48,609 nt of DNA from Candidatus Nanoarchaeia archaeon. Lineage in GTDB: Archaea; Nanobdellota; Nanobdellia; SCGC-AAA011-G17; GW2011-AR18. Below, piece by piece: positions 3,755 through 25,954 of the stretch (position 1 is its first letter; every line of letters begins with the position of its first letter). The notes beneath the pieces were generated by a model. That model made no database searches, was not told the DNA's origin, and saw only the letters and a list, made by a program, of their open reading frames with translations. Where the stretch lies: assembly GCA_035655455.1 (NCBI GenBank), contig DASRUL010000006.1, positions 1 to 48,609 on the forward strand, given 5' to 3'. The position numbers and the translations under genes were made by a program.

Positions 3755-4321
3755 ATGATCACAAAAGAAATGATCATTGGAGAAGTCGTAGAAAAATATC
3801 CGGGAGCATCAGGCCTCATGGCGAATTTCGGGTTGCATTGCTTTGGCTGTCACGCGAATCCCTACGAAACAATCGAAGATGGCGTCATAAGCCATGGGTT
3901 TTCTGAAACAGAACTCAACACCTTACTCATAGAATTAAACACCCTCGCAGAACAATCCAAGAAGAACACCATCAACCAAGAACACTCCCAAGAAAAAATA
4001 GTTTCGTTGACAGAAAACGCAGCTGCAGAAGTGAAGAACATGCTGAAAATGCAGGGAAGAGAAGGATTCGGCTTAACAATAAACGTGAAATCCGGCGGGT
4101 GCGCAGGCTTCATGTATGAGATCAACTTCGCGAAGGAACCGTCCGCCAGGGATATTGTCGTTGAAGATCAGGGGTTGAAGCTGTTTGTTGATCCTGAAGC
4201 TGTTGAATTTGTGAGGGGTGCTCAAGTTGAGTATGTTGCTGGTTTGATGAATGCTGGTTTTAAGGTTGTGAATCCGAATGAGAAGAAAGCCTGTGGGTGT
4301 GGAAGTTCTATTGGGTTTTGA
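3755..4321 (+). CDS. fusion of a DUF1858-like redox-disulfide domain and an IscA/HesB-type Fe-S cluster assembly domain
   Basis: The N-terminus (MITKEMIIGEVVEKYPGASGLMANFGLHCFGCHANPYETIEDGVISHG) fits the DUF1858 pattern. The C-terminal half has SGGCAGFMYEINF and a terminal CGCGSSIGF, which is the IscA/HesB Cys triad. I chose the start at MITKEM rather than the track start at 3716. Confidence 0.75.
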   Translation: MITKEMIIGEVVEKYPGASGLMANFGLHCFGCHANPYETIEDGVISHGFSETELNTLLIELNTLAEQSKKNTINQEHSQEKIVSLTENAAAEVKNMLKMQGREGFGLTINVKSGGCAGFMYEINFAKEPSARDIVVEDQGLKLFVDPEAVEFVRGAQVEYVAGLMNAGFKVVNPNEKKACGCGSSIGF

Positions 4322-4338
4322 TCTTCTTTTGAAAAAGT

Positions 4339-5346: not shown

Positions 5347-5438
5347 AGTTTTTGGTGGCGTTTGATTCTATTTAAAGATATTCTTTTGAAACTACTTTCG
5401 AATGAGTTTTTTAGAATGGTTGGAGTTCGTTAAAATTT

Positions 5439-6035
5439 TTATTCTTCGTATCTTCGCGTAACGTCATTCCAGTTGATGATTTTCATGAAGTTGTCTACCC
5501 ATTCTGGTCGTTTGTTTTGGTATTTCAGGTAGTAGGCGTGTTCCCAGACGTCGCAGACGAGGAGGGGTTGTAATCCTGGCACCCAGATTTTTTGGTGGTT
5601 TTCTACTGCGAAGATGTGGAGTCTTCCTGTGGAGTCTTTTGCGAGGGCGCCCCATCCTGATCCCTCAACTGCGATGGTTGCTGCTTTGAAGTGGGCAACA
5701 AATTTGTCCCAGGAGCCGAAGGAATCTTCGATCGCTTGGAGGAGCGTTCCTTCTGCTTTGTTGTTTTCTTTGCCTGGTCTCATGTTTTCCCAGAACATGG
5801 TATGGAACCAGTGTCCTGCGCCGTGGAAGGCCATTTCTCGTTCCCAGTGTTTGATAGTTTCAAAGTTGCCTGTTTCTCGGGATTCTTTGAGTTTGGCCAT
5901 GGCTGTATTAAGTCCTTTGACATAGGCCGCATGGTGTTTGTCGTGATGGATTCTGAGGGTTTGTTCGTCGTAGTAGGGTTCTAGGGCGTTGTAGGGATAG
6001 GGGAGTTCCGGCAGGATGAATTCTTCATGGGCCAT
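5439..6035 (-). CDS. sod: Fe/Mn superoxide dismutase
   Basis: 198 aa with LPYPYNALEPY, HHDKHHAAYV and DVWEHAYYL(KYQN), which are canonical Fe/Mn-SOD metal-ligand motifs. A TATA element (TCTATATATAG) lies at 6062-6072 on the coding strand. Confidence 0.95.
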   Translation of the reverse strand: MAHEEFILPELPYPYNALEPYYDEQTLRIHHDKHHAAYVKGLNTAMAKLKESRETGNFETIKHWEREMAFHGAGHWFHTMFWENMRPGKENNKAEGTLLQAIEDSFGSWDKFVAHFKAATIAVEGSGWGALAKDSTGRLHIFAVENHQKIWVPGLQPLLVCDVWEHAYYLKYQNKRPEWVDNFMKIINWNDVTRRYEE

Positions 6036-6108
6036 TAGTTGTGCAGGTGTTTCTCTTTCAGACTATATATAGATTGTGGGTGTAAACTAAAAAACTCTTG
6101 AAGAAACA

Positions 6109-6116
6109 TTTATATA
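6109..6116 (+). promoter_or_regulatory. TATA box for the pentapeptide-repeat gene (divergent from the sod promoter)
   Basis: TTTATATA is centred about 27 nt upstream of the ATG at 6140, within an AT-rich divergent intergenic region (6036-6139). Confidence 0.5.
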
Positions 6117-6139
6117 CTTTATATATTCTATATATCTCT

Positions 6140-6640
6140 ATGAAAAGACCTATTTCGGGAAACGTTTTGGTTGGCGACATCCTCGCTGGAAGAAGAGATT
6201 TTCAGAGGATTCAGCTTAGAGGGTTCAATTTTTACGATTCTCCTCGTCTTGTCGATCTTGAGGATTACTTAGCACGTCAGGATTTTGAGCAAAATCCTTT
6301 GTTGTTCGCAGAGGCAGAGATGGAACATGTTTATGCAGTTGGGCTCCTCCTTCCCTATAGCAAGTTCCAGGACGCAAAATTGAGGAACGTGGATTTCTGT
6401 TTTGCTGACCTGAGGTATGCTGATTTTTGGCATGCGGACTTAAGGGAAGTGGATTTTAGAAGCGCGCTTACCGAGGGGGCGTGTTTTGGTGGGACGAGAG
6501 CGTATCGCGTAGTGGGAGTGGAAGAGCTGATAAAAGATCCCCCAAAGGAAGAGTATCATTTTAGAACCGAAGATGTTGAAATAGGCTCACCCGAATATCC
6601 CTTTGTTGATCCAAAGAGGGCTAGAGCGTTCTTTTCATAA
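6140..6640 (+). CDS. pentapeptide-repeat protein
   Basis: Runs of A(D/N)LxX-type repeats: AKLRNVDFCFADLRYADFWHADLREVDFRSALTEGACF. I chose the start at ATG 6140 (MKRPISG) from the TATA spacing; the track start at 6098 is a TTG. Confidence 0.7.
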   Translation: MKRPISGNVLVGDILAGRRDFQRIQLRGFNFYDSPRLVDLEDYLARQDFEQNPLLFAEAEMEHVYAVGLLLPYSKFQDAKLRNVDFCFADLRYADFWHADLREVDFRSALTEGACFGGTRAYRVVGVEELIKDPPKEEYHFRTEDVEIGSPEYPFVDPKRARAFFS

Positions 6641-6976
6641 GGATTTTTTTCTAAAGAGTTCAATGAGAAAATAGGTTGCAATAAGAAGAAATACGTGAAC
6701 AATTCCTGAAAGAACAGATTTTGAAGTTAAAGCTCCGGCTTGGACGAGTAATGCGCCGAAAAACGCAGAAGAAAAGATTGAAAGCGCGCCATGATAAGGA
6801 TTCACAAGACCTTTTTTAAAGTAAGAAAGCATAAGCAAAACAACCAAACTTGTCAGACCAATCAAGGAGGCGCGCAACGGATTCACATTTGGATAAAGAT
6901 AAATATACAACGTGTCCACAAGATACTGCATCACAAGCAATCCCAACACTATAAGCAGCGTTTTTTTAGCCTTCAT
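6635..6976 (-). CDS. small polytopic membrane protein (hypothetical)
   Basis: Hydrophobic ORF (MKAKKTLLIVLGLLVMQYLV..., LIGLTSLVVLLMLSYF, SAFFGALLVQAGAL, IVHVFLLIATYFLI). The internal Met start avoids a 60 nt overlap with the upstream gene. Confidence 0.45.
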   Translation of the reverse strand: MKAKKTLLIVLGLLVMQYLVDTLYIYLYPNVNPLRASLIGLTSLVVLLMLSYFKKGLVNPYHGALSIFSSAFFGALLVQAGALTSKSVLSGIVHVFLLIATYFLIELFRKKSL

Positions 6977-9605: not shown

Positions 9606-10135
9606 TTTCTAATTCGTCACCCTTAATCGCTTTAACAAAAGTCGGTCTCTTAACAGAGGCAAAGAAACTTTATTCTTCTCTTGAAGTTCCAGAGGTAGTT
9701 TTTAACGAGAGCATACTTGCAGGTTTAGAGAGTGGAAAACAAGATGCGATCATCTTGAACGCGCTCTACAAAGAAGGGTTCATTAAAAAAATAAAATTGG
9801 ACAAAAAACACGCTGAGATAAGCAAGAAAATTGAGACAGAATACCACCTAGACCAAGGGGAAGCAGAAGTTCTTGCTCTTGCTCTCCAATTAAACCAAAA
9901 AACAATACTTCTAGACGAGGCTCTGGGAAGAAATGTTGCAGAACTGTTTGAGTTGACCCCGAAAGGCTCGTTAAGGGTTATTTTAGAGTGCTACAATCAA
10001 AATTTAATCACAGAAGAAAAAGTATATGTGAAAGTAGGGGAGTTAGTAAAAATTCTAAGGATAGATTCTGAGGTTCTCACTCGCCTTTGGGATTTATTTG
10101 AGATTGCAAAGAAGAAGAAAACAAATAAAAAATGA
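9602..10135 (+). CDS. PIN-like (DUF3368-type) putative toxin
   Basis: 177 aa. SNSSPLIALTKVGLL...VPEVVFNE and DQGEAEVLALALQLNQKTILLDEALGR match the DUF3368/PIN pattern usually paired with UPF0175. The first acidic residue appears replaced by Asn and the start is a TTG, so activity and start are uncertain. Confidence 0.6.
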   Translation: MISNSSPLIALTKVGLLTEAKKLYSSLEVPEVVFNESILAGLESGKQDAIILNALYKEGFIKKIKLDKKHAEISKKIETEYHLDQGEAEVLALALQLNQKTILLDEALGRNVAELFELTPKGSLRVILECYNQNLITEEKVYVKVGELVKILRIDSEVLTRLWDLFEIAKKKKTNKK

Positions 10136-10148
10136 ATGCATCGTTATC

Positions 10149-10156
10149 TTTATATA
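10149..10156 (+). promoter_or_regulatory. TATA box for the giant-protein operon
   Basis: TTTATATA is centred about 27 nt upstream of the ATG at 10180. This supports 10180 as the true start (near-leaderless) and an operon promoter independent of the upstream TA pair. Confidence 0.55.
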
Positions 10157-10179
10157 CAGTTAAAAGACATTTCTCCATC

Positions 10180-12315
10180 ATGAAAAAAAAGGGGCAGGTC
10201 AGCGTCTTTGTCATCATCGGAATCCTTCTCGTCCTGCTCACCGGAACCTACCTCGCCTACAAATACTTCGGCATTGAAGAATCACTCAGAGAACGACGCC
10301 AACTCCTTTCCAGAGTTCCAGCACAATTCCAACCAGTCGCCAGCACCCTCAACCAGTGCGTAGCCAAAGTAACAGCAGACGCCCTCACCCTCGTCGGAAG
10401 CCAAGGAGGTTACGCAACGCTTCCCCAAGATCCACTTCCCACAACTTTTATCACTCCAATCAAAAGAAACCTCGACATCATCCCAAACTCAGGCTTCCAA
10501 ACCCCCCTCTGGTTCAGAGAAACAGGAAACGGCCTCCAAGAAACAGCAATTCCAACAAAAAAACAAGTCGAACAAAACCTCGCCCTTGTCATCAATGAAA
10601 AATTCTCCTCCTGCGTCGAAAATCTGACAAGCTTCACCAGCCAAGGCTTTCACCTCCTCAACATCGCAGACAAGCCAACATCTGCTGTAAGAATCCTTCC
10701 AGAGCGCGTCGAGGCACAGGTTGAATTTCCAGTAACGCTCTCCCTCAACGAGATCCAATACACCCTCGAGGCCCACACCGCAGAAGTGGAAACAACGTTT
10801 GGACAATTGTACGACGCGGCTGTAGAAATCTTCGAAACAGAAAACACCGGCTTCTTCCTCGAAAACAAGACACTCGACCTCCTTATCGCAGACGATGCAA
10901 TCCCTTTCTCAGGATCAGACCTCTCCTGCACCGAACACGTCTGGTCAAAGAGAGGCGTGATTGAACGAGTAAAAAACGCGCTCTTTGAAAACGTCGCGGC
11001 CATGACCATCAAAGGATCAAACACTGACAAGGATCCAGACTACCTCACCTTTGACGCGATGAAACGCGACAGAAAAGCCATCACCATCAACCTGATGTAC
11101 AATCCGGCATGGCCAACCTTCATCGAGATCAGCCCCTCCAAAGGAGACACCTTGACCTCTGACCCAATCACAAAACACACCGGCAATCTCGTCACGAGCA
11201 TCTTATCTTCGTATTTTTGTTTGAACAATTACCATTTTGTTTACACCATCAAATATCCAGTGCTTATCACCCTCACGGACGAACAAGGATTTAACTTCCA
11301 ATACGCAACAGAAGTCATCCTCGAAAGAAACCTACCCAGAAAAAACACCATCCTTCCCCTCACCCTTCCTGACACGACCTCACCATTATGTGACTATTCA
11401 ACAGCACCACTTACTATCACCACGCTCGCTGTCAACAACGAAGGATTCTTAGCGCCTTTAAATAACGTCCAACTCTCCTTCAAATGCTTTCCCACAACCT
11501 GCACCCTTGAAGAAACAGGCAAAAACAAAAACACCGTCACCCTCCTTAGCCCACCCTGCGTCAACGGCATTGTCGAAGGCCAAAAAGAAGGCTACTTCAA
11601 CGGAAAAACAGTCGTCGCAACAAACACCAAAGAGCACCAAGACATTGATCTCGTCCTCGAACCTTTGTACGAAAAAAACGTAGAAGTCTTTGTCATCGAA
11701 AAAGGCACAGGGAAAACGCGAGAACCTTACTCTTCAGAACTCGCAACCTTCGAATTCAGACACAAAGACGCACGCTTCACCACCAGCTACTCCACCCAAG
11801 AGGAAGGAGCATCCTGTGACAAGGACGAAGACTGCGGCCCGGGACTTGACTGCAAAAGAGATTCATGCATCTTACCCAACTGCGAGAAAGACACTGACTG
11901 CTCCTTACATCAAAAGTGCGTCTCCCAACAATGCGCGCCTAAAGACAATATCAAGCTCCTTGTCGGAGATTACTTTGTTACCTCTTCCCTCTCCAGATCA
12001 AGCAGCATCCCACTCACGACACAAAAACGCGAAGTAGAAAAATGCGTCGAAACCGGAAGACAAGGGTTACTTGGCCTGTTCCTCACAGAAGAAAAATGCT
12101 TCAAAACAGAAATCCCGCCAGTCGAGCTCAAAAACGTCATCGTCGGAGGCGCAACCTTCGAATTCACGTTTGATCGTGAAACGCTCAACAGCGAAGAACC
12201 TTTGAAACTCTACATCCTCACTGACGAACTTCCCGCGGACCTCGAAGGATTCGCTGAAATCCAGACAAGCTTAAGCACAAATAAAGACCATCCAATGTTC
12301 AGGTACCCGGCATGA
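10180..12315 (+). CDS. large secreted protein with a prepilin-like (class III) signal peptide and tandem 4-Cys modules (operon gene 1)
   Basis: 711 aa from ATG 10180. The N-terminus is MKKKG|QVSVFVIIGILLVLLTGTYLAY: a basic stretch, then G-Q, then a hydrophobic helix. Near the C-terminus are two tandem modules, SCDKDEDCGPGLDCKRDSC and NCEKDTDCSLHQKCVSQQC (nt 11812-11940). I recognise no protein family. Confidence 0.8.
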   Translation: MKKKGQVSVFVIIGILLVLLTGTYLAYKYFGIEESLRERRQLLSRVPAQFQPVASTLNQCVAKVTADALTLVGSQGGYATLPQDPLPTTFITPIKRNLDIIPNSGFQTPLWFRETGNGLQETAIPTKKQVEQNLALVINEKFSSCVENLTSFTSQGFHLLNIADKPTSAVRILPERVEAQVEFPVTLSLNEIQYTLEAHTAEVETTFGQLYDAAVEIFETENTGFFLENKTLDLLIADDAIPFSGSDLSCTEHVWSKRGVIERVKNALFENVAAMTIKGSNTDKDPDYLTFDAMKRDRKAITINLMYNPAWPTFIEISPSKGDTLTSDPITKHTGNLVTSILSSYFCLNNYHFVYTIKYPVLITLTDEQGFNFQYATEVILERNLPRKNTILPLTLPDTTSPLCDYSTAPLTITTLAVNNEGFLAPLNNVQLSFKCFPTTCTLEETGKNKNTVTLLSPPCVNGIVEGQKEGYFNGKTVVATNTKEHQDIDLVLEPLYEKNVEVFVIEKGTGKTREPYSSELATFEFRHKDARFTTSYSTQEEGASCDKDEDCGPGLDCKRDSCILPNCEKDTDCSLHQKCVSQQCAPKDNIKLLVGDYFVTSSLSRSSSIPLTTQKREVEKCVETGRQGLLGLFLTEEKCFKTEIPPVELKNVIVGGATFEFTFDRETLNSEEPLKLYILTDELPADLEGFAEIQTSLSTNKDHPMFRYPA

Positions 12316-15300
12316 GAAAAAAAAGCGTGATCGCACTGTTCTGCATGATGCTGATAGTCACCAGCCCCATGGTTCTCAGCCAACGCTTCTCAACATCCTC
12401 AGACTTTAACCTCCAAGAGTCAGAACCAATCGTAGATTTCACCACCTCGCCCTTTGACCGAGCCTCAGCTGTTTACAGCAAAACGTTTGGCACGCCCCAA
12501 GACGTCGGAGAAGCACTCATCATCTACGCAGGACAGCCACAACCACCCCTCATCAGAGCCTCACTCGCAGAAGACCAAGAAATACCTGTGTTTATTCCCC
12601 TCAAAACCACAGACATTGGTTCAGTGCTTTCAACCCTGACAGGAGATGTTTCAGAACGAGACCCATTCACAGGATTAACAAGCATTCCCCGCATTAGCAA
12701 CGTCGTTGTCAGACTCAACAAAACAAATCCTTACGTAAAAACAGTCAGATACATCCCGCCAAAAACAGGTTTCACAAAAGACAACCTTGGTTATTTAGTC
12801 GTCATTTTAAACAAGCTGAAAAACGAAACCAGCCTGCCAACCTCAGGAAGCATCCAAGCAGGCATCGCCAGCGTCCAACTTCCAGGAGAAGTCTTTTCCA
12901 GCCTCAACAACACGCCAGTCATTCCCTTAGAACTCAACGCAGAAATCCTTTTCGACCTCACCTCAGGAACCCTGCTCAGCCTCGGAGAACAAACCCTCAC
13001 CCTCAAACAAGAATCAGAACAAGCATTCCTGCAAAAACCCTCACGAGAAGAAAACGCGTTTTACAACAAGAGAGCGTATCTCCGCGCGAACGCCATCTCA
13101 TCAGACAGGGTATCGTTTACCGTGTACAATAAAGAATTACATTCGCTCTCTCTCTTTAATCCACCAAACGAACCAGCAGGCGTACCTGTTTCCTCGCTCA
13201 CCCTCTCCCGCTCAAGCCCAGAATCACGACCCATCAGACTCAGAATCAGCTCCAACGCGCTCGAAGACACCGTGCGATTTAGGCTCAATGAGATTGTCCT
13301 TCCAGAAGACAGGGTTAGCTACCGATTAATCGCAGGCGGAAAAACCTACGAAAGAAAAGCAAACATCCGCAGTCCCTTGTTTCCGCGATCACGCTGGGAA
13401 ATCCAGAGAATAGCACAGTCAGACCCTGAACCAACCACCCTCAAAGACCTCATCGAAAAAGGAATCATCCTTGACACTACCTCAGAAGAAAAAGCAAAAC
13501 AAGCAGCATCAGGAGAACTCAAGCTCATCACGCACACCCTTGTCCTCAGAAACACCGCAACAGGAGAAACACGAACACTTCAACGAAATGTCCTGACAGG
13601 CCTTGTTTTTTCCTTTGACACAGCACCAGTAGACGACACCACCGCGAGCTTCTTAGAAAAAAAATACTGCCCAGAACCAGATCCAGACAAGGCAGACTTA
13701 GGCTGCGCAGCAGTCCACACCTTTAAAAAAATCACCCAAGACTTTCCCCATACAGCAGAAGCAAAAGACAGCCACAAACAACTCTTCGAGATTTACGAGC
13801 AGAAGCTCATAGATTACGCCGCGTGCGATAAGACAGGACCAAATCCCAATGATGTCGCCAACCTCAACGAGTGCCAGGCCTTCCTCAGGGACACACAAAC
13901 ACTTGCTTATTACTACGCGAGCAAAATCCAAGCTTCAGACCCAGAGCTCATCCAGCGACTGCAAGCGGGATACGGAGGAGCCGGCGGCTTCGAATATTTG
14001 ACAGACGAAGGCATCTCAGTCCAACTCAACTACGTAGAGAAAATCACAAACGAAGAAAAAGGCTCCGCCACACTCCGCGTGAACGGCGTCGAACATCAAA
14101 ACTTGCGGGTAGGCATAAACATTCCAGGAACTGAAGGCACGGCAATCACAGGAGAACCCTTCACCCTTGAAATCAGCGCCATCAGATCAAGCACTGTCCA
14201 TATCATAAAGAGAGCAAAAACCTCCCAACGCGTTCTCGGCTCGTCACAAACCCTCGTCCTCGGAAAAAATAATGTCCTCCTTCAGGAAAGAAGATCTGCA
14301 GACGGACGTGTTGAGCGAGAATCTGTTGACATCGAACTTGTGAACGTCAATACCAACGTCGAGGCATCAGTCAGCATCATCCCAAACGCAGGCCTCGGCC
14401 TCGCACGCTCTTCCTTCACTGTCATCATTCCTGTCGAGCCACGACCATTGAAGAATATTGGAGAGAAATTAAAAGACCACATCAACGCCACGAGAAAACT
14501 GGTCGCGGACTTAGACAAGGTCATCCAAAAACTCGACAGCGTCGTCAGAACATGGAAGAAGATTTGTTTGGTGACGTTCGCGTTTGTCACAGTCAAAAGC
14601 TCCTTCCTCGGAGGAACAACACGGGCACTCGCACGCCGCGGCGTCAGCGAGCTCTATAAAAAAGACTGCAACCAAAAAGCCAGCACAGGGCTCTTCGAGA
14701 GCGCTGATGATTGCCTAGCATCCAGAGCAGATGATATCTCCAAAGACGTCGACGCGAACCAGCGCGCGATTGAACATGTCCAACAAGAACTCTCAGGACA
14801 AACACCAGCCACGCTTAAAACGTGCGGAGACGTTCCCTTCCAAGAAGTCAAAGCCCTCGGCGCGACTATTGACGACTGCAGAGACTATTTACGGCTAAAC
14901 GCGCTCAGGAGCGACACCATCTCAGACACTTTCGCCAAAGGCGTTGATCAACAATTATCAGCACTCAAATTCGAAGGAAAGAAACAACAGTACGAAGCAG
15001 CAGAACAATGGCTCAAGGGTTATCCAGACTTCACGAGAAAGTTTGGCGAGGATGAAGACGCAAGGCTTGAAGCGCTAAGATTTTACACAAACTCGGCAGA
15101 AGCACAAAAAGAAAGCGCAACCTCACAAAAAAATGTTCTCCCTCTCTCACATCTCCTTCCCACAGAAGACAACAAAGCAACAGCCCTATTACCTCAAACA
15201 GGAACGAATGATCTTGGACCAACAACCCTTGTCAAAGTCACCAGGCTGCAACGCGCAGTCTACGAATCAGGAGCAGAAGGTGTTGTGAGCAGCATACAAA

Positions 15301-17510
15301 AGGCTTACTGCAAAGACTTACATGATCCTCAATGCATCCAAGGCCAGCTCGATCTTTGGAACAGCATTTCAGACGAACCCTTATACGCGCGCCAAGAATT
15401 TGTGAATCCTGCTACCCTTATAAAAAATTTGGGAACTGCACACCCTTACCTTTCAAGCTATACCTTGCTCACGACAAAAAATAAAGCGCTCGCCATCTCC
15501 AGCACAACACCACCAGCAGACTTCAACCTCTACTCCAGCCAAGTCGTTGACGTCAACAACCAACTACGAAGCCTAGACTACGCCTACTCACAGGGAGCAG
15601 AGGCAGGCGGAGACCTTCTCGCACAATACGACCCAGAATCAGGCCAAGCCTTCTGCTACCCCACAGGAAGAGACGGAGAATACGTTCTTGTCTTAGAACG
15701 CTTCCAAGGCACAGGAAAAGTAAAAATCTTCAGGGCAATGAACGTCGGCCTTAACGGCGTCATCGAATGCGGCTCAGGAGACGATGTCATCGTTCTTGAC
15801 GAATCAGCACTCAGCCTGCCAGCAAACCAGAGAAAAAGACTTGATTATTTATCCATTGTTGACCGCGCGCCACGCTGCCAAAAAGAAGGAACAAGAGTAG
15901 GAAGCGTCACAAAGAAAAACGGAAAAACAGTAGGCGTACGCTGCAGCACCAAACAAGCAAAACTCAACCTCCAACTCAACAGCCCAAAATGCATCGACGT
16001 CATGGAACCAGAAGACTGCACCATCCTGTTCAACGCGTGCGATCCAGTCATGTGCCCAGCAACACGCTGCAACCTCGGAGGCAAGTACCAAGTAGACGAC
16101 GTCATCCAATCAGGCATTGTCGGCTCAGTCTTTCTCTGCGCACCAAACGTGAAACAAGGCGTTGTTGTTCCTTTCTGTTTAACAGGAATACTCGCAGGAC
16201 TCAAACACATCAAGAGCATCCTCCAATCCTATGCAGATTGTTTAGAGGCGAACCTGAAAGACGGAAAGAACGTCGGCTTCTGCGATTATATCAGAAGCGT
16301 CGGCGTCTGCGAATTAATCTGGAGAGAAACCATTAACCTCTTCAACATCAAAGGCGGCGTCATTGATTATTTATCAGAAAAGGCCTTTGGCGAGCCAGAA
16401 GGAGGCGCAGAATACTTGACCTTCCAGCAATCCCTCCAAAACGTCGGAGACTCGTTCAACTACTTTACCACAGAATACTCCAACACGTACGTGGCGGCAT
16501 TAAAAGGGTCATCCACAGAAGAAATAGGATCCCAAGTATGCAGGCTTGGCGTTTACGGAAGACTGCCAACTGTTGGGGATGTGCTTGACAAACTCTCAGA
16601 ACCTGAAGATCCCCCACAATTCTTCGCGCTTCTCGACGAGGCGCCCTATGTCCAAGACATCGGAGAAGCACCCCTTGTTCCACGCGTCCCCTCAAGCGCA
16701 CAGGCCTTATCCAATTATAAAATATTTTATCACATCTACGCGGGAACAGGATTCGCAGCACAACAAGCAGTCTTCACAGACCCAGTCAATCAGGCAACAG
16801 GGCGACCAAACAAAGCAGTCACCTACTCTGTGTACTTGATCAATAAAGAATTAGGCTTACCTCCCTTGTATATGACCTCAGAAGAAGAACTCGGCCAAGT
16901 TTCCGCAACCATTCCCAGAGGGCAGTATGTGCAAAAATCAGTCCAGCGCGTTAGCCAAACAGGATACAACGAGGTATGCATCAATTTAAATGGAAAGCCC
17001 TCTTGCGGATTTGGAAAAGTCTCATCAGCATTCTCCCTGAACTATATCAATGATAAACTTGTCGAAGCAGAGGCAGGCAAGAAGGTTAAGAGCGCAGAAG
17101 AATGCCTTCCAGACCCGCCAACAACAGGAGCAGCGCTCGGCAGCTTCGTCACCCCAGAACGTTACGGCCTCGTGAACACTGGAGTGGTACGCGTCTGCAA
17201 CCCAACACCACCAACAGCAGACACGACGCGATGGGCAGCAGCCGGAGAATGCGGCAAAGACAAGAACGGGGTTGATCGCGGCATATGCTGGCTTGACAGA
17301 AACTCGTTAAATATTAAAAACCTCGAAACAAGAAGCGACGTGCTCGGAGCATTAAAACAACGCGACATTCTCAAAAAACAAGGACTTGAAGGAGACATCC
17401 TCACAGCAGAGCAAAGCAACCAACTCCTCGAACAATTACGAGAACGCCGCGACCATGTCCTTGAAAAACTCCGGCTAGAAGTACAACGCTTGTTAGAGGA
17501 GGAAGCATGA
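12312..17510 (+). CDS. giant secreted protein, 1732 aa (operon gene 2)
   Basis: The ATG overlaps the upstream stop (ATGA). It has a Sec-type signal (MRKKSVIALFCMMLIVTSPMVLSQ), a central hydrophobic segment (ICLVTFAFVTV), a region with 12 Cys in about 150 aa plus hydrophobic stretches (nt ~15870-16330: NACDPVMCPATRCNLGG...GIVGSVFLCAPN...VVPFCLTGILAGL) and a C-terminal coiled coil (LLEQLRERRDHVLEKLRLEVQRLLEEEA). Confidence 0.85.
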   Translation: MRKKSVIALFCMMLIVTSPMVLSQRFSTSSDFNLQESEPIVDFTTSPFDRASAVYSKTFGTPQDVGEALIIYAGQPQPPLIRASLAEDQEIPVFIPLKTTDIGSVLSTLTGDVSERDPFTGLTSIPRISNVVVRLNKTNPYVKTVRYIPPKTGFTKDNLGYLVVILNKLKNETSLPTSGSIQAGIASVQLPGEVFSSLNNTPVIPLELNAEILFDLTSGTLLSLGEQTLTLKQESEQAFLQKPSREENAFYNKRAYLRANAISSDRVSFTVYNKELHSLSLFNPPNEPAGVPVSSLTLSRSSPESRPIRLRISSNALEDTVRFRLNEIVLPEDRVSYRLIAGGKTYERKANIRSPLFPRSRWEIQRIAQSDPEPTTLKDLIEKGIILDTTSEEKAKQAASGELKLITHTLVLRNTATGETRTLQRNVLTGLVFSFDTAPVDDTTASFLEKKYCPEPDPDKADLGCAAVHTFKKITQDFPHTAEAKDSHKQLFEIYEQKLIDYAACDKTGPNPNDVANLNECQAFLRDTQTLAYYYASKIQASDPELIQRLQAGYGGAGGFEYLTDEGISVQLNYVEKITNEEKGSATLRVNGVEHQNLRVGINIPGTEGTAITGEPFTLEISAIRSSTVHIIKRAKTSQRVLGSSQTLVLGKNNVLLQERRSADGRVERESVDIELVNVNTNVEASVSIIPNAGLGLARSSFTVIIPVEPRPLKNIGEKLKDHINATRKLVADLDKVIQKLDSVVRTWKKICLVTFAFVTVKSSFLGGTTRALARRGVSELYKKDCNQKASTGLFESADDCLASRADDISKDVDANQRAIEHVQQELSGQTPATLKTCGDVPFQEVKALGATIDDCRDYLRLNALRSDTISDTFAKGVDQQLSALKFEGKKQQYEAAEQWLKGYPDFTRKFGEDEDARLEALRFYTNSAEAQKESATSQKNVLPLSHLLPTEDNKATALLPQTGTNDLGPTTLVKVTRLQRAVYESGAEGVVSSIQKAYCKDLHDPQCIQGQLDLWNSISDEPLYARQEFVNPATLIKNLGTAHPYLSSYTLLTTKNKALAISSTTPPADFNLYSSQVVDVNNQLRSLDYAYSQGAEAGGDLLAQYDPESGQAFCYPTGRDGEYVLVLERFQGTGKVKIFRAMNVGLNGVIECGSGDDVIVLDESALSLPANQRKRLDYLSIVDRAPRCQKEGTRVGSVTKKNGKTVGVRCSTKQAKLNLQLNSPKCIDVMEPEDCTILFNACDPVMCPATRCNLGGKYQVDDVIQSGIVGSVFLCAPNVKQGVVVPFCLTGILAGLKHIKSILQSYADCLEANLKDGKNVGFCDYIRSVGVCELIWRETINLFNIKGGVIDYLSEKAFGEPEGGAEYLTFQQSLQNVGDSFNYFTTEYSNTYVAALKGSSTEEIGSQVCRLGVYGRLPTVGDVLDKLSEPEDPPQFFALLDEAPYVQDIGEAPLVPRVPSSAQALSNYKIFYHIYAGTGFAAQQAVFTDPVNQATGRPNKAVTYSVYLINKELGLPPLYMTSEEELGQVSATIPRGQYVQKSVQRVSQTGYNEVCINLNGKPSCGFGKVSSAFSLNYINDKLVEAEAGKKVKSAEECLPDPPTTGAALGSFVTPERYGLVNTGVVRVCNPTPPTADTTRWAAAGECGKDKNGVDRGICWLDRNSLNIKNLETRSDVLGALKQRDILKKQGLEGDILTAEQSNQLLEQLRERRDHVLEKLRLEVQRLLEEEA

Positions 17511-20500
17511 AACTCTTTTCTTCTCTCAGCATTTTCCTTCTTATGGTCTTTTTAGGAAGCGTCCTTGCCACAGCACAAGTAACTTCTGAAGACGTCAAAG
17601 AACGCCTGATCGGAGCAGCATTCTTTTTAGAAGATGGAGGAGAACCTTATTTTTATTGTCCAAGAGTCAAAGAAGGATCCTGCCTGAAACTAAGCCCAAT
17701 AGGCTGGCTTGACAATTCAGGAAATATTGTTAATGATGAAGACGCTCTTAAAAGTTTAAATGATCTTCTCGCAAAACAAACTGAAGAGACACGCAAGACC
17801 TTCATAGAAAAAGCGTTTATTGGTGATACATTCACCTGGACAAGCCCTGCTGGAAAGAGGATTGATTACATATACTGTCCTGAAGTAAAAGAACAAGCAT
17901 GCTCAAGGGCAAGCCGCACAGGATGGTTGATCAAAGAAACCGGAAATGAGGCTTTAGCGACCAAAGGAGGAGAAGCTGTCTTAAACCATTTGAACGAGCA
18001 ACTCAAAACAAAAGTCGATGAAGCTTTTTCATCAACAATCGAAGACGAATCATCAGAAGAGCAAGTGGTTTTTAGAACAGGTGACTGCACATCTCGTGAA
18101 CGAAAATTTTCAAAAAACAAGTGTTTGGAACGCGAAGAGAACGCAGCAAGCCTCATCAGAGAATTTCTAGGATTAAATTACGAGACAGTTCGAACCTACT
18201 CTCTTGAAGACAAAGCAGTCATTCAGGCTTTATACGATCGCGCAGTCGGATTCAAAAGAATCGCAGAATTAAAACGGCAGTATGAAGGCGCTGTCGAGGT
18301 GAAGCCCGCGGAGAAGAAGCTGTTGGTTCCTGTAGGGGGTAATTTTGAGGCGGTGTTGGATCATGAACAGTCCGCATTAACAGTGAGTTATACGGATCCT
18401 GAAAATAGTGATCCTGATCTGAAGTTCAGGTTGTCGTTGAATGGACAGCCTCTTCCAGCAGTTTTTACAAAAGACGGAGAAATCGCTCGCGCGCAGATTA
18501 GTTTCGAGGATGTTGAGAAGAAGGTTGGTTTTTTTGGTATTTTCAAGCGTTTGCCTGCCTTGGTGCTTTCAGTTCAGCATAAGGGAATAATTAAGGAGTT
18601 TCATCCTAATCTTGTGAGAAGGGTGACTGGCGAAGTTAGTGAAAATGCGGAAGTTATTTTTACATATAATGACAAGGATCGTCTCGGGATTAGCGTAAGT
18701 GGCGTTTTGGCTGGAGAACAGGCGTTGTCTTTCAGAGATAAGGTGTTTGTGTTGACGCCGAACTCTTTGAAAGGAGAACCTTCTGGAAACGCTGCGTTTG
18801 ATGTGAAGGATTTCCCCGCCTTGTTTGAAGCTGTGAAATCAGATGATAGCATTTTAGGCGAGGTTGAATTTGTGGTTAATAATCAGCAGAGAAAGCAGGC
18901 ATATGCTCCCACGGAAATATATTATATGTATACGCGGAAGGTTGTTGAGAGGGAAGCTGTTTCTGCTGAGACTCCAGAGGTTGTTTCTCCTGCTGAGGCG
19001 TGTGGAAAATGTGGAGACGGTATTCTTTTAGTTTGTACAAAAACGGCGTGTGAAACTGAAACGCTGGAGAAGTATGGAGCGCGTTGTAAATTCTTGCCAA
19101 ATATTCTAACGTTTAATCAGTTAGGAAATTGCATGCCACTCGCGCAGGAACTAACCTTGAGCCCTTCAGAGATTATCCCTCAAGTGGAGAAGTTTTGTAC
19201 GCCGAGCCAAACTAAAGTAATTAAGGAAGAACTGGATTTCGAAGCGAAGAGCCGTCGCGTGTTAGGTTTCAGAAAATTCGTGGAGAGCGCGACTGATGAC
19301 GGGATGGAGCGAATGCTCTTGTACGCGATCATGAGTGTTGAGTCTGGAGGGGATCCTAATGCGCAGCATGAGAATGAGGGTGGCTCTGTTGATGTCGGGC
19401 TGATGCAATTCAATGATGGCACTGCGCCGCGCGTGTTTATTCCTTATGAAGACCAGTTTGGAAACAGCTGTGGGAATACTAATACGAAGGAGACTAATGT
19501 TTGCTATGTGTGCGATAAAAAGGGTTGTGGGAGCGGTGACGCAAGGAGGGTTCCTGAGATCGCGATTAAGGGCGCGAAAAAGTTATTGGATTTAAATAGA
19601 AATGCTATTCGCCGTGAATTTGAGAAGTCTGTTGGGAATGGGGAAACGCCGGCCCAGTTAAGTGGAGAAACGTTAGAGAAGCTCACGATTTTGTCTTATA
19701 ATCGCGGTCCTGGCAGGATTATGGGCGCGGTAAAAGAGCTTGCTGCACAGAAAGGAGATAAAGGCGGTGAAATTACGTTTGAGGAAGTTGTCGAGCGTGC
19801 CAAATTTGGCAAGGGCGCGCTTTGTTATGTTTCGCGCGTGTTATTTTACGCTGGCGCCTACGCTGGAGAGTTCGGAATTGGTGGTACAGAATCGACACCG
19901 CCGCAAGCTGTAGCTCCCGCGCGAGTGACGGACGATCTTACGCCTGAAAGGCCAAAAGAGATTTCAAAAGGCGCTCCGGTTGATGCTGAGCATGTATACT
20001 ACTTCACTGTTGACGGCAGATTCCGTTTTCCTAATGAGAATCCTGTTCCTCAGAATACGTTGCCCGTGAAAGGGGCAACGTACGCTGTTGGTCAGAGTGA
20101 AGGGATTTTTGTTGAGCAGACGACGGAAGAGCAGATAACGTTTGCATTCTTTAGGACGAATGCGCTGGGCGTTGTTACGCAAGTGGATTATCCGATTGTT
20201 TTGAATAGTCAGCAAGAAGAGGCATTCCTTGTTAAAGGAAAGTTTAGGGTTTTCTGGCAAGGAGGTAAGAACCTTGGGGTGTTGTATCGGCCTGTAGTGC
20301 AGGAACCTGGCGAGGACGCGGAGAGCGCGCGAGTGAATCCCGGAGAGGTATACTTGTTTTCTGAGATAAGTCCGACGCTTTTGAATCCAATTTTTAAATT
20401 AACAGATAAAGAAGAGCCTGTACGCGGGAAAGAGTACATCTCCCCGCAGAAAGGATCGGCTGGCGGGCGTGCTGTGAAAGGAGTTTATATCCTTGATGTT

Positions 20501-20668
20501 AATACCCATGACGGGATTACCTTTTTCTATTTCAGCACAAATAACAAAGGTGTTGTTGGGGGAATGACGCGGGCGACGGTGACCGAGACGAAGACTGAGG
20601 AGGTTCCTCAGGGCACATATAGGTTTTATTTTGCTCCTCCAGATGTGTTGCGGGTTGAAAAATTATGA
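17507..20668 (+). CDS. secreted 1053-aa protein with a GH23/SLT lytic-transglycosylase-like domain (operon gene 3)
   Basis: ATGA overlap with gene 2. Sec signal is MKLFSSLSIFLLMVFLGSVLATAQV. Two tandem Cys-pair repeats occur: YFYCPRVKEGSCLKLSPIGWL and YIYCPEVKEQACSRASRTGWL. SLT motifs are LLYAIMSVESGGDP (E-S), VGLMQFN and ILSYNRGPG, at nt ~19300-19760. Two C-terminal beta-rich repeats contain ITFAFFRTNALGVV and ITFFYFSTNNKGVV. Confidence 0.85.
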   Translation: MKLFSSLSIFLLMVFLGSVLATAQVTSEDVKERLIGAAFFLEDGGEPYFYCPRVKEGSCLKLSPIGWLDNSGNIVNDEDALKSLNDLLAKQTEETRKTFIEKAFIGDTFTWTSPAGKRIDYIYCPEVKEQACSRASRTGWLIKETGNEALATKGGEAVLNHLNEQLKTKVDEAFSSTIEDESSEEQVVFRTGDCTSRERKFSKNKCLEREENAASLIREFLGLNYETVRTYSLEDKAVIQALYDRAVGFKRIAELKRQYEGAVEVKPAEKKLLVPVGGNFEAVLDHEQSALTVSYTDPENSDPDLKFRLSLNGQPLPAVFTKDGEIARAQISFEDVEKKVGFFGIFKRLPALVLSVQHKGIIKEFHPNLVRRVTGEVSENAEVIFTYNDKDRLGISVSGVLAGEQALSFRDKVFVLTPNSLKGEPSGNAAFDVKDFPALFEAVKSDDSILGEVEFVVNNQQRKQAYAPTEIYYMYTRKVVEREAVSAETPEVVSPAEACGKCGDGILLVCTKTACETETLEKYGARCKFLPNILTFNQLGNCMPLAQELTLSPSEIIPQVEKFCTPSQTKVIKEELDFEAKSRRVLGFRKFVESATDDGMERMLLYAIMSVESGGDPNAQHENEGGSVDVGLMQFNDGTAPRVFIPYEDQFGNSCGNTNTKETNVCYVCDKKGCGSGDARRVPEIAIKGAKKLLDLNRNAIRREFEKSVGNGETPAQLSGETLEKLTILSYNRGPGRIMGAVKELAAQKGDKGGEITFEEVVERAKFGKGALCYVSRVLFYAGAYAGEFGIGGTESTPPQAVAPARVTDDLTPERPKEISKGAPVDAEHVYYFTVDGRFRFPNENPVPQNTLPVKGATYAVGQSEGIFVEQTTEEQITFAFFRTNALGVVTQVDYPIVLNSQQEEAFLVKGKFRVFWQGGKNLGVLYRPVVQEPGEDAESARVNPGEVYLFSEISPTLLNPIFKLTDKEEPVRGKEYISPQKGSAGGRAVKGVYILDVNTHDGITFFYFSTNNKGVVGGMTRATVTETKTEEVPQGTYRFYFAPPDVLRVEKL

Positions 20669-21429
20669 AAAAAGCAAGCGCTTTGTTTAATAAGAATTTT
20701 TTGAAGGTGTTCTTTTTTGATCTTCTCCTCACCATCCTCTTACTCTCCCTGCTGCTCTTTGTCAGAACACAATCAAAAACCTACTTTGAAGATATCCAAG
20801 CATTCTCAGGAGAAATCGCAGAAATAGAACAAATCCTCAGCAAGGAAGACGCCTCAGCAGAAGAAGTCGCACGCGCCCAAGAAACAATCTCAACACTAGA
20901 CAGCATCACCACAAAGTCTTTGCTCTTAAACAGCGTCCTCTTTCCCTTGGCTGTCATCATTCTCTGGATGACCATTGGCTGGCTGTCATGGAGAGGTTTC
21001 ACCAACGTTTCCTGGAAGAGGTTTGCGTTATCCTCTCTGCTTCCTCTCACGCTCTTCTTTTTCCTGATTCTGTATAGTCTCGATATACTCTCCTTGATCC
21101 TGTTCAAAGATACCCAATCGTCCTGGATTATTTTTTCTTTCCTCCTCGTCCTCTTTTTAACAGCAGTGTATTTCTTCCTCATCATCATAGGAAAACCAAC
21201 ACTCACCCTCAAAGAACTATTCTTTTTTGGCATTCACACTTTTAAGAAAATATGGCTGAGACTTTTCCTTCTCACCCTCTTAGGAATTATTTACCTTACT
21301 CTGATCTCGCTCGTGTTCGTTTTCACTTATGTGAACATGTCCATCCTCCTTCCAGCACTCTTCCTTCTCGCTGTCCTTCTACTTCTTGCATTCCAAAAAC
21401 AAGCCTTTGTTAAAGCACTAGAATCTTAA
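20665..21429 (+). CDS. polytopic membrane protein (operon gene 4)
   Basis: ATGA overlap with gene 3. 254 aa with about 6 hydrophobic helices (FFFDLLLTILLLSLLLFV, VLFPLAVIILWMTIGWL, LSSLLPLTLFFFLILYSLDILSLILF, IIFSFLLVLFLTAVYFFLIII, LFLLTLLGIIYLTLISLVFVF, ILLPALFLLAVLLLLAF). Confidence 0.75.
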   Translation: MKKASALFNKNFLKVFFFDLLLTILLLSLLLFVRTQSKTYFEDIQAFSGEIAEIEQILSKEDASAEEVARAQETISTLDSITTKSLLLNSVLFPLAVIILWMTIGWLSWRGFTNVSWKRFALSSLLPLTLFFFLILYSLDILSLILFKDTQSSWIIFSFLLVLFLTAVYFFLIIIGKPTLTLKELFFFGIHTFKKIWLRLFLLTLLGIIYLTLISLVFVFTYVNMSILLPALFLLAVLLLLAFQKQAFVKALES

Positions 21430-21468: not shown

Positions 21469-21603
21469 TGCGGGGAACAGGATTTGAACCTGTGAAGGCA
21501 CTAAGCCACCAGGTTTCTTCAAACAACCACCTAAGCTAAGCCTTTTAGTTCTTTCTCTAAAGAATCTAAAATCTGGCCCGTTTGTCCACTTCGGTATCCC
21601 CGC
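21469..21603 (-). tRNA. class II tRNA, most likely tRNA-Leu (candidate anticodon UAG), with about 51 nt of intronic sequence in the anticodon arm
   Basis: Reverse complement: acceptor GCGGGGA/TCCCCGC plus discriminator A73. D-arm is CCGAAGTGGACAAACGG. The long variable arm is TGGCTTAGTGCCTTC. T-arm is ACAGG-TTCAAAT-CCTGT. The anticodon region is 68 nt rather than 17, and contains a 12-bp hairpin (TTTTAG-A-TTCTTT/AAAGAA-CTAAAA) and two CTTAG motifs. A TATA-like element lies about 28 nt upstream (21628-21634). Confidence 0.75.
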
Positions 21604-25933: not shown

Positions 25934-25954
25934 TAAATTATAAAAAATCGTGCT

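Follow-up and report, generated by a model that had tools for sequence, protein, structure and literature searches.

How can a single reading frame carry the codon usage of one DNA strand up to a certain codon and that of the other strand beyond it? This question arises in a four-gene operon within a stretch of 48,609 nt, hereafter the window, which comes from the chromosome of a tiny groundwater archaeon of Woesearchaeota-like (DPANN) type. A sequence-only reading had described a switch from C/A-ending to G/T-ending codons inside an intact giant open reading frame, extending from about position 18270 to about 20722, and had suggested that the intervening DNA evolved in the opposite orientation under strand-specific mutation pressure.

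Synonymous sites in the window are C/A-rich on the plus strand, whichever direction the gene points. Plus-strand genes have codons that end in C or A, and minus-strand genes are their mirror image: the base frequencies at fourfold-degenerate sites are A.34 C.41 G.11 T.15 in plus genes and A.15 C.11 G.36 T.38 in minus genes read in their own sense. These data support the conclusion that third-position bias is set by the DNA strand and not by the direction of transcription. Synonymous sites track the strand, and therefore the codon usage of a gene records the strand on which it has long resided. The ordinary strand-determined bias is also seen in genes for which high expression is expected (FtsZ, DnaK, DnaJ, GrpE, LSm and, more weakly, S8e). 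An orc1/cdc6 gene is present in the window, and the skew does not switch beside it. The bias is an extreme one of the replication type, and we assume that replication is its cause.

The operon consists of four genes:

10132..12315 (+): gene A, 727 aa, N-terminal membrane anchor, normal C/A-type codons; open reading frame with a GC3 skew of -0.65
12312..17510 (+): gene B, 1732 aa, a giant protein that carries a signal or anchor sequence; normal C/A-type codons
17507..20668 (+): gene C, a predicted secreted protein of 1053 aa with an SLT/GH23 lytic transglycosylase domain; a mosaic gene in which most of the tract lies
20665..21429 (+): gene D, a 254-aa multi-pass membrane protein; first 20 codons mirror-type, remainder normal

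A Pfam search with gene A found no domain, and its orthologues occur at 40 loci of Woese-, Pace- and Nanoarchaeia. Gene A is 55% identical to its orthologue on contig L005 and 42% identical to that on L007; the corresponding values for gene B over its full length are 53% and 37%, and gene D is 42% identical to the L005 orthologue. Genes B and C overlap in an ATGA.

We fitted a maximum-likelihood model with two change points to the occurrence of G or T at the third positions of the 3764 operon codons. The fit delimits a tract at 18275-20724 with a log-likelihood ratio of 238.6, compared to a maximum of 12.0 among 200 permutations, and its 2-lnL support intervals confine the edges to 28 and 13 nt. 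A two-state HMM run across the whole window returned 18277-20724. The tract and its edges are:

18275..20724 (+): flipped tract of mirror composition, 2450 nt long; runs from aa 257 of gene C to aa 1053, through the ATGA overlap and 20 codons into gene D
18269..18296 (+): support interval of the 5' junction; codons K256/R257 within GFKRIAELKRQYEG
20718..20730 (+): support interval of the 3' junction; codons 20/21 of gene D, within the block DLLLTILLLSLLLFVRTQSKTYF

G or T occupies the third position at a frequency of 0.675 within the tract (816 codons) versus 0.256 outside. Skews computed in-frame at third positions in 300-nt bins also change at both edges. The genes at 10132-17510 have GC3 skews of -0.33 to -0.89 and AT3 skews of +0.18 to +0.79; at 18407-20668 the GC3 skew is +0.24 to +0.57 and the AT3 skew is mostly negative; and within the first 300 nt of the gene at 20665-21429, GC3 skew is back at -0.52. 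Fourfold-degenerate sites of the tract are of the mirror type (A.17 C.14 G.32 T.37), and its codon usage has a lnL of -852 under the minus-gene model versus -1234 under the plus-gene model. Per codon, the window's own minus-gene model fits at -1.083 and the keto-type models of the relatives L005, L007, L012 and L036 at -1.15 to -1.18. The tract is not clearly classed as minus-type by amino-acid composition or by first and second codon positions. Although the tract codes on the plus strand, its signature is in full that of the other strand.

Gene D opens with 20 codons of which 15 end in G or T. Their codon-usage log ratio is +9.7, compared to a maximum of +2.0 at the starts of genuine plus-type genes, and that of codons 21-40 is -20.6. 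The evidence that the tract extends into gene D, which rests on 20 codons, is good but not overwhelming. The codon-bias flip is thus real and its coordinates had been given exactly, including the return to normal usage shortly after the start of the next gene. Hand counts of bases in two 60-nt stretches also proved exact (G25 C8 A12 T15 at 18301-18360; G11 C15 A24 T10 at 13021-13080). The reading frame is indeed intact, but it belongs to the 1053-aa gene C and not to the 1732-aa giant upstream. Evolution of the tract in the opposite orientation is supported, because the bias follows the strand and the tract has the composition of minus-strand genes.

Gene C can be divided as follows:

17507..18274 (+): native-polarity N-terminal part, aa 1-256; the codon model prefers plus type
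18369..19301 (+): hypervariable middle region, aa 288-599
19277..19879 (+): SLT (lytic transglycosylase) domain region, aa 591-791, from Pfam
19979..20665 (+): a pair of repeat modules, each ~100 aa, at the C-terminal end (aa 825-893 and aa 928-1044)

The N-terminal part begins with a signal-like sequence, taken as a signal peptide, and comprises an extension of ~200 aa with two Cys-containing repeats and a conserved motif block (aa 205-264). Its GC3 is only 0.33, with fourfold-degenerate sites of A.45 C.24 G.05 T.27. The SLT match (PF01464, E=2.5e-11) covers aa 594-644 and scores 43.6 bits against a cut-off of 21.3. The motifs ES (E612-S613), GLMQF (G631/M633/Q634/F635) and YNRG (Y731-N732-x-G734) are invariant in an alignment with P0015, the orthologue encoded on L005, and P0016, which is similar to the L007 protein. 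We take the Glu-Ser, GLMQ and AYNxG motifs to be the catalytic motifs of the SLT/GH23 family. By profile and motifs, gene C encodes a predicted, secreted SLT/GH23 lytic transglycosylase (murein hydrolase). Region aa 591-791 is 32% identical to P0015, and both repeat modules align to one P0015 region (aa 895-1013). The flipped tract, as had been proposed, takes in the SLT domain and the C-terminal repeats (aa 257-1053).

Relatives exist in which the whole operon locus has mirror polarity. In L005, the syntenic operon is G/T-type throughout, as are the LSm and S8e genes; minus-strand genes there are C/A-type. L007, L012, L036 and L025 are likewise keto-type, and L048 is amino-type like the window. 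Alignments of gene C with its orthologues from L005, L007 and L010 cross residue 257 and continue through the SLT domain in collinear order, so that these orthologues are homologous and collinear with the tract; the ~200-aa N-terminal extension is missing from all three. Some relatives carry the SLT region within gene B. Judged from these alignments, the tract is best described as an allelic replacement and not an insertion. Among 5.8 billion proteins, a word-indexed search with gene C found only its own 90% cluster, and a full HMMER scan of cluster representatives, which collapses relatives of >50% identity, gave 13 distant matches. Genome, metagenome, viral and phage collections held nothing closer. 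No donor lineage was found in the collections searched, where no sequence is closer than ~30-36% identity.

Both junctions are in frame and lie in conserved sequence. The 5' junction lies within LKRQYEG, the motif of gene C with the highest conservation. The stretch GG CAG TAT GAA GG there is identical in the distant L005 orthologue, and 14 nt at this junction match even an orthologue of ~30% identity. The block at the 3' junction, DLLLTILLLSLLLFVRTQSKTYF, is also conserved with L005. The tract is edged by a TTAAAA element on its 5' side and by a T-run (TTCTTTTTT) on its 3' side.

We compared the locus with other, independent assemblies, which supplied eight further full-length copies of the 1053-aa gene C. 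Four fetched loci, from four assembly records (three MEGAHIT-style k141 contigs and scaffold ANAN16), are collinear with the window and align across both junctions gap-free at 99.8% identity; two short contigs span the 3' junction. The collections searched contained no contig with an alternative "native" allele of the tract. Across the compared assemblies, polymorphism is highest in gene C, and SNP density is elevated in the tract. Thirty of the 35 tract SNPs among five assemblies sit in aa 288-599, where they are mostly non-synonymous and form short patches with recombinant haplotypes; transversions account for 13 of the 35. In P0013, a more divergent variant of the strain, the first difference occurs exactly at residue 257, with 0/256 residues differing before this point and 44/534 after (Fisher p = 4e-8). 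Two allele types of gene C were seen, both encoding the same kind of protein.

A second tract of this type occurs near the start of the window:

4114..6758 (no strand assigned): second mirror-composition tract, ~2.6 kb; log-likelihood ratio 190, also recovered by the HMM

Plus-strand G/T at third positions is 0.70 in this tract versus 0.285. It begins within an intact HesB/IscA-like gene (3716-4321, plus strand), adjoining the GGCAGF motif, and covers an HTH gene (minus), an Fe/Mn superoxide dismutase gene (minus) and a pentapeptide-repeat gene (plus). It thus reverses single-copy housekeeping genes of both orientations in normal gene order. The tract is identical in at least 10 assemblies (ENA, JGI, Logan, NCBI).

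We favor homologous-recombination import from an unsampled sister lineage of opposite replication polarity, to which we assign a probability of about 0.7. A tract from a relative with an inverted locus had been one of the explanations offered initially, and the mirror-polarity relatives, the collinear homology, the 5' junction in a conserved motif and the second tract all argue for it. The imported piece would be ~2.45 kb of the orthologous operon, and the donor would have had the same gene order, GC content and codon regime, with this region in opposite replication polarity, perhaps through a large inversion or different origin usage. One crossover would have fallen in the LKRQYEG motif of the SLT protein and the other in gene D, at its first transmembrane block; both blocks are short and conserved, and both reading frames would thereby have remained intact. 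The exchange would have given gene C a new variable middle region, SLT catalytic domain and set of C-terminal repeats; its product is the fastest-evolving protein of the operon and presumably contacts the target. Measured against the pace of synonymous change, such an import would be recent, with amelioration of at most ~10%. The same process would explain the second tract. The collections searched yielded no donor, which counts against import. Recombination between mirror-type orthologues should also be inefficient: calculated from compositions, their expected identity at fourfold-degenerate sites is ~19%, and overall DNA identity is then at most ~70%. Because of this low identity, junction formation through short conserved patches is a mechanism that we infer.

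A donor within the same genome could also have supplied the tract, by non-allelic gene conversion or a move from a paralogous or silent gene C copy on the opposite strand. The fit of tract codon usage to the genome's own minus-strand genes, the patchy SNP haplotypes of aa 288-599 and the P0013 variant, with its identical N-terminus and diverged tract, are all compatible with this origin, and repeated conversion could also yield patchy strain variation, as in antigenic-variation cassettes. We nevertheless consider it unlikely. No assembly of these samples contains a second copy, the 90% cluster consists only of this locus and its fragments, and no paralogue appeared in the word-indexed search or in the full HMMER scan, the latter collapsing sequences of >50% identity. 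Moreover, the tract reaches into gene D, and the second tract, in which single-copy housekeeping genes (SOD, HesB-like) stand in normal order, cannot be accounted for by a paralogue. That tract also makes a local mutational process very improbable, since it flips genes of both orientations and begins mid-gene. Under this alternative, an internal transcription unit at 18275-20724 would have undergone transcription-associated mutagenesis (C>T and A>G on the non-template strand) strong enough to override the replication bias and increase diversity. It predicts the G/T-rich coding strand, and the TTAAAA element and T-run at the edges and the elevated SNP density are in its favor. However, genes expected to be highly expressed keep the ordinary strand bias, tract composition is the mirror type nucleotide by nucleotide, and of the 35 tract SNPs 13 are transversions and 30 lie within 933 nt.

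Capture of a foreign C-terminal cassette was suggested by the sequence-only reading; an SLT module from a bacterium or virus, joined in frame, would be an example. SLT domains are typically bacterial, and the Pfam SLT match does sit in the tract. We reject this origin as highly implausible, because other Woesearchaeota orthologues share the architecture and are collinear across the junction, and the codon regime is the genome's own mirror type and not an alien one; in addition, the phage and viral collections gave no match, and the tract continues into gene D. An incomplete-amelioration relic is about as remote a prospect. According to the relatives, locus polarity did switch during evolution, and the whole locus could have changed strand recently with only the tract yet to re-equilibrate. 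Similar synonymous rates are expected everywhere, yet the flanks are at equilibrium while the tract is almost fully mirror-type, and the edges of this sharp two-state pattern are only ~10 codons wide. The source data are metagenome assemblies and were assessed at the assembly level, which leaves room for a chimera of two co-occurring populations, another of the initial suggestions. As far as the assemblies show, this is rejected and barely credible: the same 1053-aa gene is present in eight other assemblies, further contigs cross the 3' junction, four fetched loci are gap-free and 99.8% identical over both junctions, no contig in the collections searched carries a "native" allele, and both junctions are in frame.

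Several other arrangements were considered. For an invertible segment, shufflon or intragenic inverton, no inverted-repeat pair links ~18275 with ~20724, the longest minus-strand open reading frame in the tract is 98 aa, and no window open reading frame contains a recombinase domain. A diversity-generating retroelement target is disfavored by the lack of a reverse transcriptase domain in the window and of any repeat of the variable region there. As for a polymorphic-toxin cassette swapped with its immunity gene, only 20 codons of gene D lie in the tract, and tRNA and PIN-domain genes lie downstream.

Import by homologous recombination is a known process, of which this locus would be a clear new case. 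Mosaic penicillin-binding-protein and surface-protein genes of Streptococcus and Neisseria arise by homologous recombination between diverged lineages. They share with gene C a kilobase tract with sharp edges in an intact gene, crossovers in conserved sequence, and an exposed, fast-evolving gene with raised allelic diversity. Here, however, the tract is recognized by mirror strand bias and not by divergence from known parents, and the host is a DPANN archaeon. In Borrelia and Treponema, leading and lagging genes differ in codon usage; other work deals with the detection of genes that changed replication strand. Codon usage is set by replication strand there and, we assume, here, and a misfit is read as a recent change of orientation, but those cases are whole genes or inverted segments, whereas the switch in gene C is intragenic with the frame preserved, which an in-place inversion cannot give. 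Polymorphic toxins swap C-termini at a conserved motif (VENN in CdiA, PxxxxDPxGL in Rhs), and one variant of gene C likewise diverges sharply after a conserved motif (P0013: 0/256 vs 44/534). In contrast to CdiA and Rhs, there is no co-swapped immunity gene, no downstream orphan cassettes and no toxin domain, and there are only two diverged alleles.

The genome of Microgenomates Ch65, from the ultrasmall CPR bacteria, has a whole-strand G/C disparity with no clear A/T trend (PMC7143001). This ultrasmall-celled groundwater lineage resembles our archaeon in its continuous skew of one sign regardless of gene orientation; in the archaeon both G/C and A/T are skewed, and the pattern is known over 48.6 kb. 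In Ca. Forterrea, a Diapherotrite of the DPANN, homologous recombination, localized SNP hot spots and within-population exchange were described (PMC5905446). A near-clonal population, local islands of variation attributed to recombination and large membrane-anchored proteins are common to both cases, and the composition reversal is found only here. In its predicted features, gene C appears to resemble a described secreted SLT protein of >1000 aa from a Woesearchaeota-type genome, which was proposed to bind or degrade bacterial cell walls; here the protein is encoded by the third gene of a conserved four-gene operon.

The operon is followed by a tRNA gene and a PIN-domain gene:

21469..21603 (-): tRNA gene, 135 nt, directly downstream of the operon (Rfam RF00005, 40.6 bits)

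ARAGORN did not detect this tRNA gene, which probably contains an intron because it is 135 nt long. In other assemblies, gene callers chose an antisense open reading frame at 20781-21233 instead of gene D; this antisense frame looks spurious.

Codon usage in the window is determined by the DNA strand. Plus-strand genes have 4-fold-site frequencies of A.34 C.41 G.11 T.15, and minus-strand genes read in their own sense have A.15 C.11 G.36 T.38, giving a very strong bias (4-fold GC skew about ±0.55). Because the minus-strand genes mirror the plus-strand genes in both codon usage and 4-fold sites, the bias belongs to the strand rather than to transcription or translation, and with a strand-tied bias this strong, codon usage indicates which strand a sequence has evolved on. 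The plus strand of the whole window is A31 C26 G19 T25%. We refer to third codon positions ending in C or A, normal for plus-strand genes here, as C/A-type and to the mirror condition as G/T-type. The DNA is archaeal and chromosomal; it encodes TFIIB, Orc1/Cdc6, FtsZ, LSm, ribosomal protein S8e, DnaK/DnaJ/GrpE and pyruvate dehydrogenase E1, and its relatives are metagenome-assembled genomes labelled Woesearchaeota or Nanoarchaeia. Strand bias this extreme, and independent of gene orientation, is unusual in an archaeon; it resembles the one-signed whole-strand G/C disparity of some ultrasmall CPR bacteria (PMC7143001).

The tract of mirror composition lies in a plus-strand operon with the following features.

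10132-21429, plus strand: four-gene operon (genes A to D; 727, 1732, 1053 and 254 aa)
17507-20668, plus strand: gene C, SLT-domain protein
17507-18100, plus strand: N-terminal ~200 aa of the SLT protein, with two Cys-containing repeats (YFYCPRVKEGSC... and YIYCPEVKEQAC...)
18275-20724: mirror-composition tract
20665-21429, plus strand: gene D, membrane protein
20781-21233, minus strand: 150-aa antisense ORF, annotated in place of gene D by the gene callers of other assemblies

In-frame third positions of the genes at 10132-17510 show GC3 skews of -0.33 to -0.89 and AT3 skews of +0.18 to +0.79. Between ~18.4 and 20.67 kb the GC3 skew is +0.24 to +0.57, and it returns to -0.52 in gene D. A two-change-point maximum-likelihood fit to third-position G/T over the 3764 operon codons placed the tract at 18275-20724 with a log-likelihood ratio of 238.6, a value that never exceeded 12 in 200 permutations. 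Both edges are sharp, with 2-lnL support intervals of 18269-18296 and 20718-20730, and a window-wide HMM gave 18277-20724. Third-position G/T is 0.675 in the 816 codons of the tract versus 0.256 outside. The sequence-only reading had put the switch at 18270/18275 and the reversion at 20722, 19 codons into the next gene, and the fit bears out both; its hand nucleotide counts were exact on recount. It had also assigned the tract to a giant ORF, but the host is the 1053-aa gene C, downstream of the 1732-aa giant gene.

The tract has 4-fold frequencies of A.17 C.14 G.32 T.37, essentially those of a minus-strand gene. Its codon usage has a lnL of -852 under a minus-gene model versus -1234 under a plus-gene model, and the plus model is preferred for the N-terminal 256 codons of gene C. 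The fit per codon is -1.083 under the window's own minus-gene model and -1.15 to -1.18 under the G/T-type genes of four relatives. In leave-one-out fits, the tract scores within the range of genuine minus genes, and at most ~10% of the expected difference has eroded. First and second codon positions and amino-acid composition, tried as signs of long residence on the other strand, gave no clear class for the tract. Its extension into gene D is supported: 15 of the first 20 codons end in G/T and their codon log ratio is +9.7, compared with at most +2.0 at the starts of genuine plus-type genes, and the following 20 codons score -20.6.

At its 5' end, the tract has a junction that separates K256 from R257 in ...ALYDRAVGFKRIAELKRQYEG..., the best-conserved block of the gene C protein, where 14 consecutive nucleotides are identical to the gene on the distant contig L005. 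The 3' junction is at codons 20/21 of gene D, within a block also conserved with L005. We found no meaningful repeats flanking the tract. A 17-nt direct repeat (18259-18275 and 20814-20830, 88% identical) lies 90 nt past the 3' junction and was judged to be due to chance.

Relatives of gene C are few: a full HMMER scan across 1.8 billion representatives gave 13 matches, and a PDB sequence search gave none. The ES, GLMQF and YNxG motifs of the SLT domain are present. The closest relatives are P0015, the orthologue on L005, and P0016, which is similar to the gene C product of contig L007; both belong to syntenic four-gene operons.

L005 operon: 716, 1760, 1214 and 242 aa, with LSm and S8e nearby
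L007 operon: 712, 1990, 1114 and 252 aa

On L005, the operon and the adjoining plus-strand genes, including S8e, are all G/T-type (GC3 skew +0.26 to +0.81), and the minus-strand genes, including LSm, are C/A-type. The strand bias here is of the same kind as in the window, but the entire syntenic region has the opposite polarity, so that relatives carrying the locus in mirror polarity, one possibility raised by the sequence-only reading, do exist. The operon also lies on the G/T-rich strand in L007, L012, L036 and L025 and on the C/A-rich strand, as in the window, in L048; because these relatives differ, the polarity of the locus has changed more than once in the clade. Many other lineages show weak bias only.

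A second mirror tract lies upstream of the operon.

3716-4321, plus strand: gene with DUF1858 and HesB/IscA-like domains
4114-6758: second tract, containing an HTH gene (minus strand), an Fe/Mn superoxide dismutase gene (minus strand) and a pentapeptide-repeat gene (plus strand)

The gene at 3716-4321 is C/A-type to ~4113 and G/T-type from there to its stop, and the HTH and superoxide dismutase genes are C/A-type in their own sense. The fit to this ~2.6-kb tract has a log-likelihood ratio of 190, with plus-strand third-position G/T of 0.70 versus 0.285; the HMM bounds are 4114-6562. Its left edge comes just after a conserved SGGCAGF motif, and because the tract starts inside an intact gene, an in-place inversion cannot have produced it. 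The tract is unchanged in at least 10 assemblies from four sources, with a SNP density as low as in its flanks. By exact look-up, the superoxide dismutase and HesB-like proteins were found in the same population only, and in an unchanged context.

Two origins offered by the sequence-only reading are contradicted by comparison with other assemblies and with relatives. Against an assembly chimera, the 90% protein cluster of gene C holds eight other full-length copies from other assemblies, in addition to the window copy and fragments. Four of these loci, fetched with 10-kb flanks (by record name, three MEGAHIT-style k141 assemblies and one scaffold named ANAN16), align gap-free over both junctions, differing at 37-41 positions in 23 kb, and two short contigs cross the 3' junction; we regard a chimera as scarcely credible. 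The assemblies derive from groundwater samples, among them ERZ28563625/SAMN03842437, ERZ4903125 and SRR3989344. Capture of a foreign C-terminal cassette is nearly as improbable, given that the gene C products of L005 and L007 and the partial gene on L010, the first two from syntenic operons, are collinear with the window protein across residue 257 and through the SLT domain. No contig in the collections searched carries a native, C/A-type version of the tract. An unaligned 29-nt stretch at the start of contig L008 was considered as a variant junction and rejected, as we take it to be sequencing adapter.

We favor a recombination tract from a relative with the locus inverted, to which collinear orthology, the opposite-polarity relatives and the second tract all point. 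Import by homologous recombination from a sister lineage of opposite polarity has, in our estimate, a probability of about 0.7, and both tracts are explained if an orthologous piece came from a lineage that shares the gene order but has the opposite polarity. A paralogue or silent cassette on the opposite strand of the same genome is a distant second, and a paralogous origin is unlikely for the housekeeping genes of the second tract. Transcription-associated mutagenesis is improbable, and we give still less credence to a relic of incomplete amelioration. In the import scenario, the source would be a sister lineage outside those sampled and with the same codon regime, the crossovers would have fallen in short conserved blocks, and the event would be recent. 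The expected identity between mirror-type orthologues, calculated from 4-fold compositions, is ~19% at 4-fold sites, which counts against easy recombination; recombination must therefore rely on very short identical patches. Some archaea recombine with very short flanking homology. Searches for a donor were negative in genome contigs with gene C, viral contigs and phage records, and metagenome contigs yielded only the distant L007. None of the relatives compared above is the donor: their proteins are 30-59% identical to those of the window, and their GC3 is lower. In another DPANN archaeon, local SNP islands and homologous recombination have been described (PMC5905446).

Comparing the window with four other assemblies over 23 kb gives 78 variable columns, of which 35 are in the 2.45-kb tract. 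Thirty of those 35 fall within 18369-19301 (aa 288-599), and the N-terminal part of gene C has five SNPs. The hot spot is thus the variable middle region of gene C and not the whole tract. Tract SNPs comprise 25 non-synonymous and 10 synonymous changes, compared to 16 and 14 in the flanks. The SNPs at 18369-19301 are mostly non-synonymous and their haplotypes are patchy and recombinant, breaking the four-gamete rule in our reading; this suggests diversifying selection on a presumed target-contacting region. P0013, a more divergent strain variant from another run that ends at 796 aa and was compared as protein, does not differ from the window over residues 1-256, but has 44 differences and a 5-residue deletion over residues 257-790. 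Because its first difference is residue 257, the junction is also a boundary of allelic divergence, suggesting that the same crossover zone was used more than once. Patches that P0013 shares with L001-L004 and L008 have G/T-type third positions in the DNA of those assemblies.

In a broader and more speculative reading, two sister Woesearchaeota lineages replicate this region in opposite directions and have exchanged genes recurrently, leaving both tracts; the LKRQYEG motif of a secreted murein hydrolase would be a reused crossover point at which strains swap one target-binding and catalytic module for another. The opposite replication direction could result from a large inversion or from different origin usage. 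If the gene-flow reading is true, strand bias is a built-in introgression barcode in DPANN archaea; if the module-swap reading is true, it provides a cassette-like mechanism for host-range or prey-range variation. Large secreted SLT-domain proteins are a described hallmark of Woese- and Pacearchaeota (PMC8204110). Contact with bacteria, or attack on them, is the role proposed for the secreted SLT protein, and the tract shows that recombination at a conserved motif can remodel this predicted peptidoglycan-cleaving protein and leave it intact.

Strand-determined codon usage and mosaic genes are both classical; what is new is their combination: in an archaeon of unusually strong bias, a mirror-image strand signature exposes intragenic mosaics. 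Gene flow in the uncultivated DPANN archaea is difficult to observe. Here, the bias is strong enough to make any DNA imported from a relative of opposite replication polarity visible from a single sequence, to within ~10 codons, with no need for the donor. Applied genome-wide, the approach could give the frequency and length of imports; both tracts here are ~2.5 kb. Such extreme mirror-image composition in an archaeon may also bear on how the chromosome is replicated. The Orc1/Cdc6 gene (26260-27369) was rejected as an origin explaining the polarity: the skew does not change sign on either side of it in the window, and its upstream region (25325-26259) has no ORB-like (origin recognition box) repeats. 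Related loci near orc1/cdc6 have an ambiguous skew pattern confounded by gene orientation, and cdc6 of the L005 genome sits on a 1.6-kb contig. Either no active origin is present at this locus, or bidirectional replication from here does not determine the skew.

Between lineages, the modules of the operon have been shuffled. The L005, L007 and L010 orthologues lack the N-terminal ~200 aa of the SLT protein, and GC3 at 17507-18100 is ~0.32 versus ~0.50 in neighboring genes; this part may be a separately acquired module. In some related Woesearchaeota there is no separate gene C and an SLT-like region lies at the C-terminal end of giant gene B (L013 9501-9983; L017 17416-17985), and many Pacearchaeota loci have no separate C-sized ORF directly after gene B. 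The antisense call at 20781-21233 is probably an artefact of strand bias, because the plus-strand ORF has orthologues on L005 and L007.

Several smaller features surround the operon.

8486-10135: UPF0175 and PIN-like/DUF3368 pair
21469-21603, minus strand: 135-nt tRNA gene, probably intron-containing, found by Rfam
21849-22283: PIN-domain gene

ARAGORN found no tRNA in the window, including the one detected by Rfam. Contig L002 carries eight substitutions and one indel clustered at 21607-21623, abutting the 5' end of the tRNA gene. The toxin-antitoxin-like modules on both sides of the operon have low GC3 (0.29-0.35), their skew is weak or atypical, and they are probably mobile insertions; on L005, a MazE/PIN pair lies downstream of the operon. 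Four of the eight gene C contigs from other assemblies are 47.4-49.5 kb long, near the size of the window, which may hint at breaks near the same places. Two assemblies have 10-12 SNPs clustered at 42-321. These observations suggest repeats or strain-variable DNA at the window edges (1-330 and 48609).
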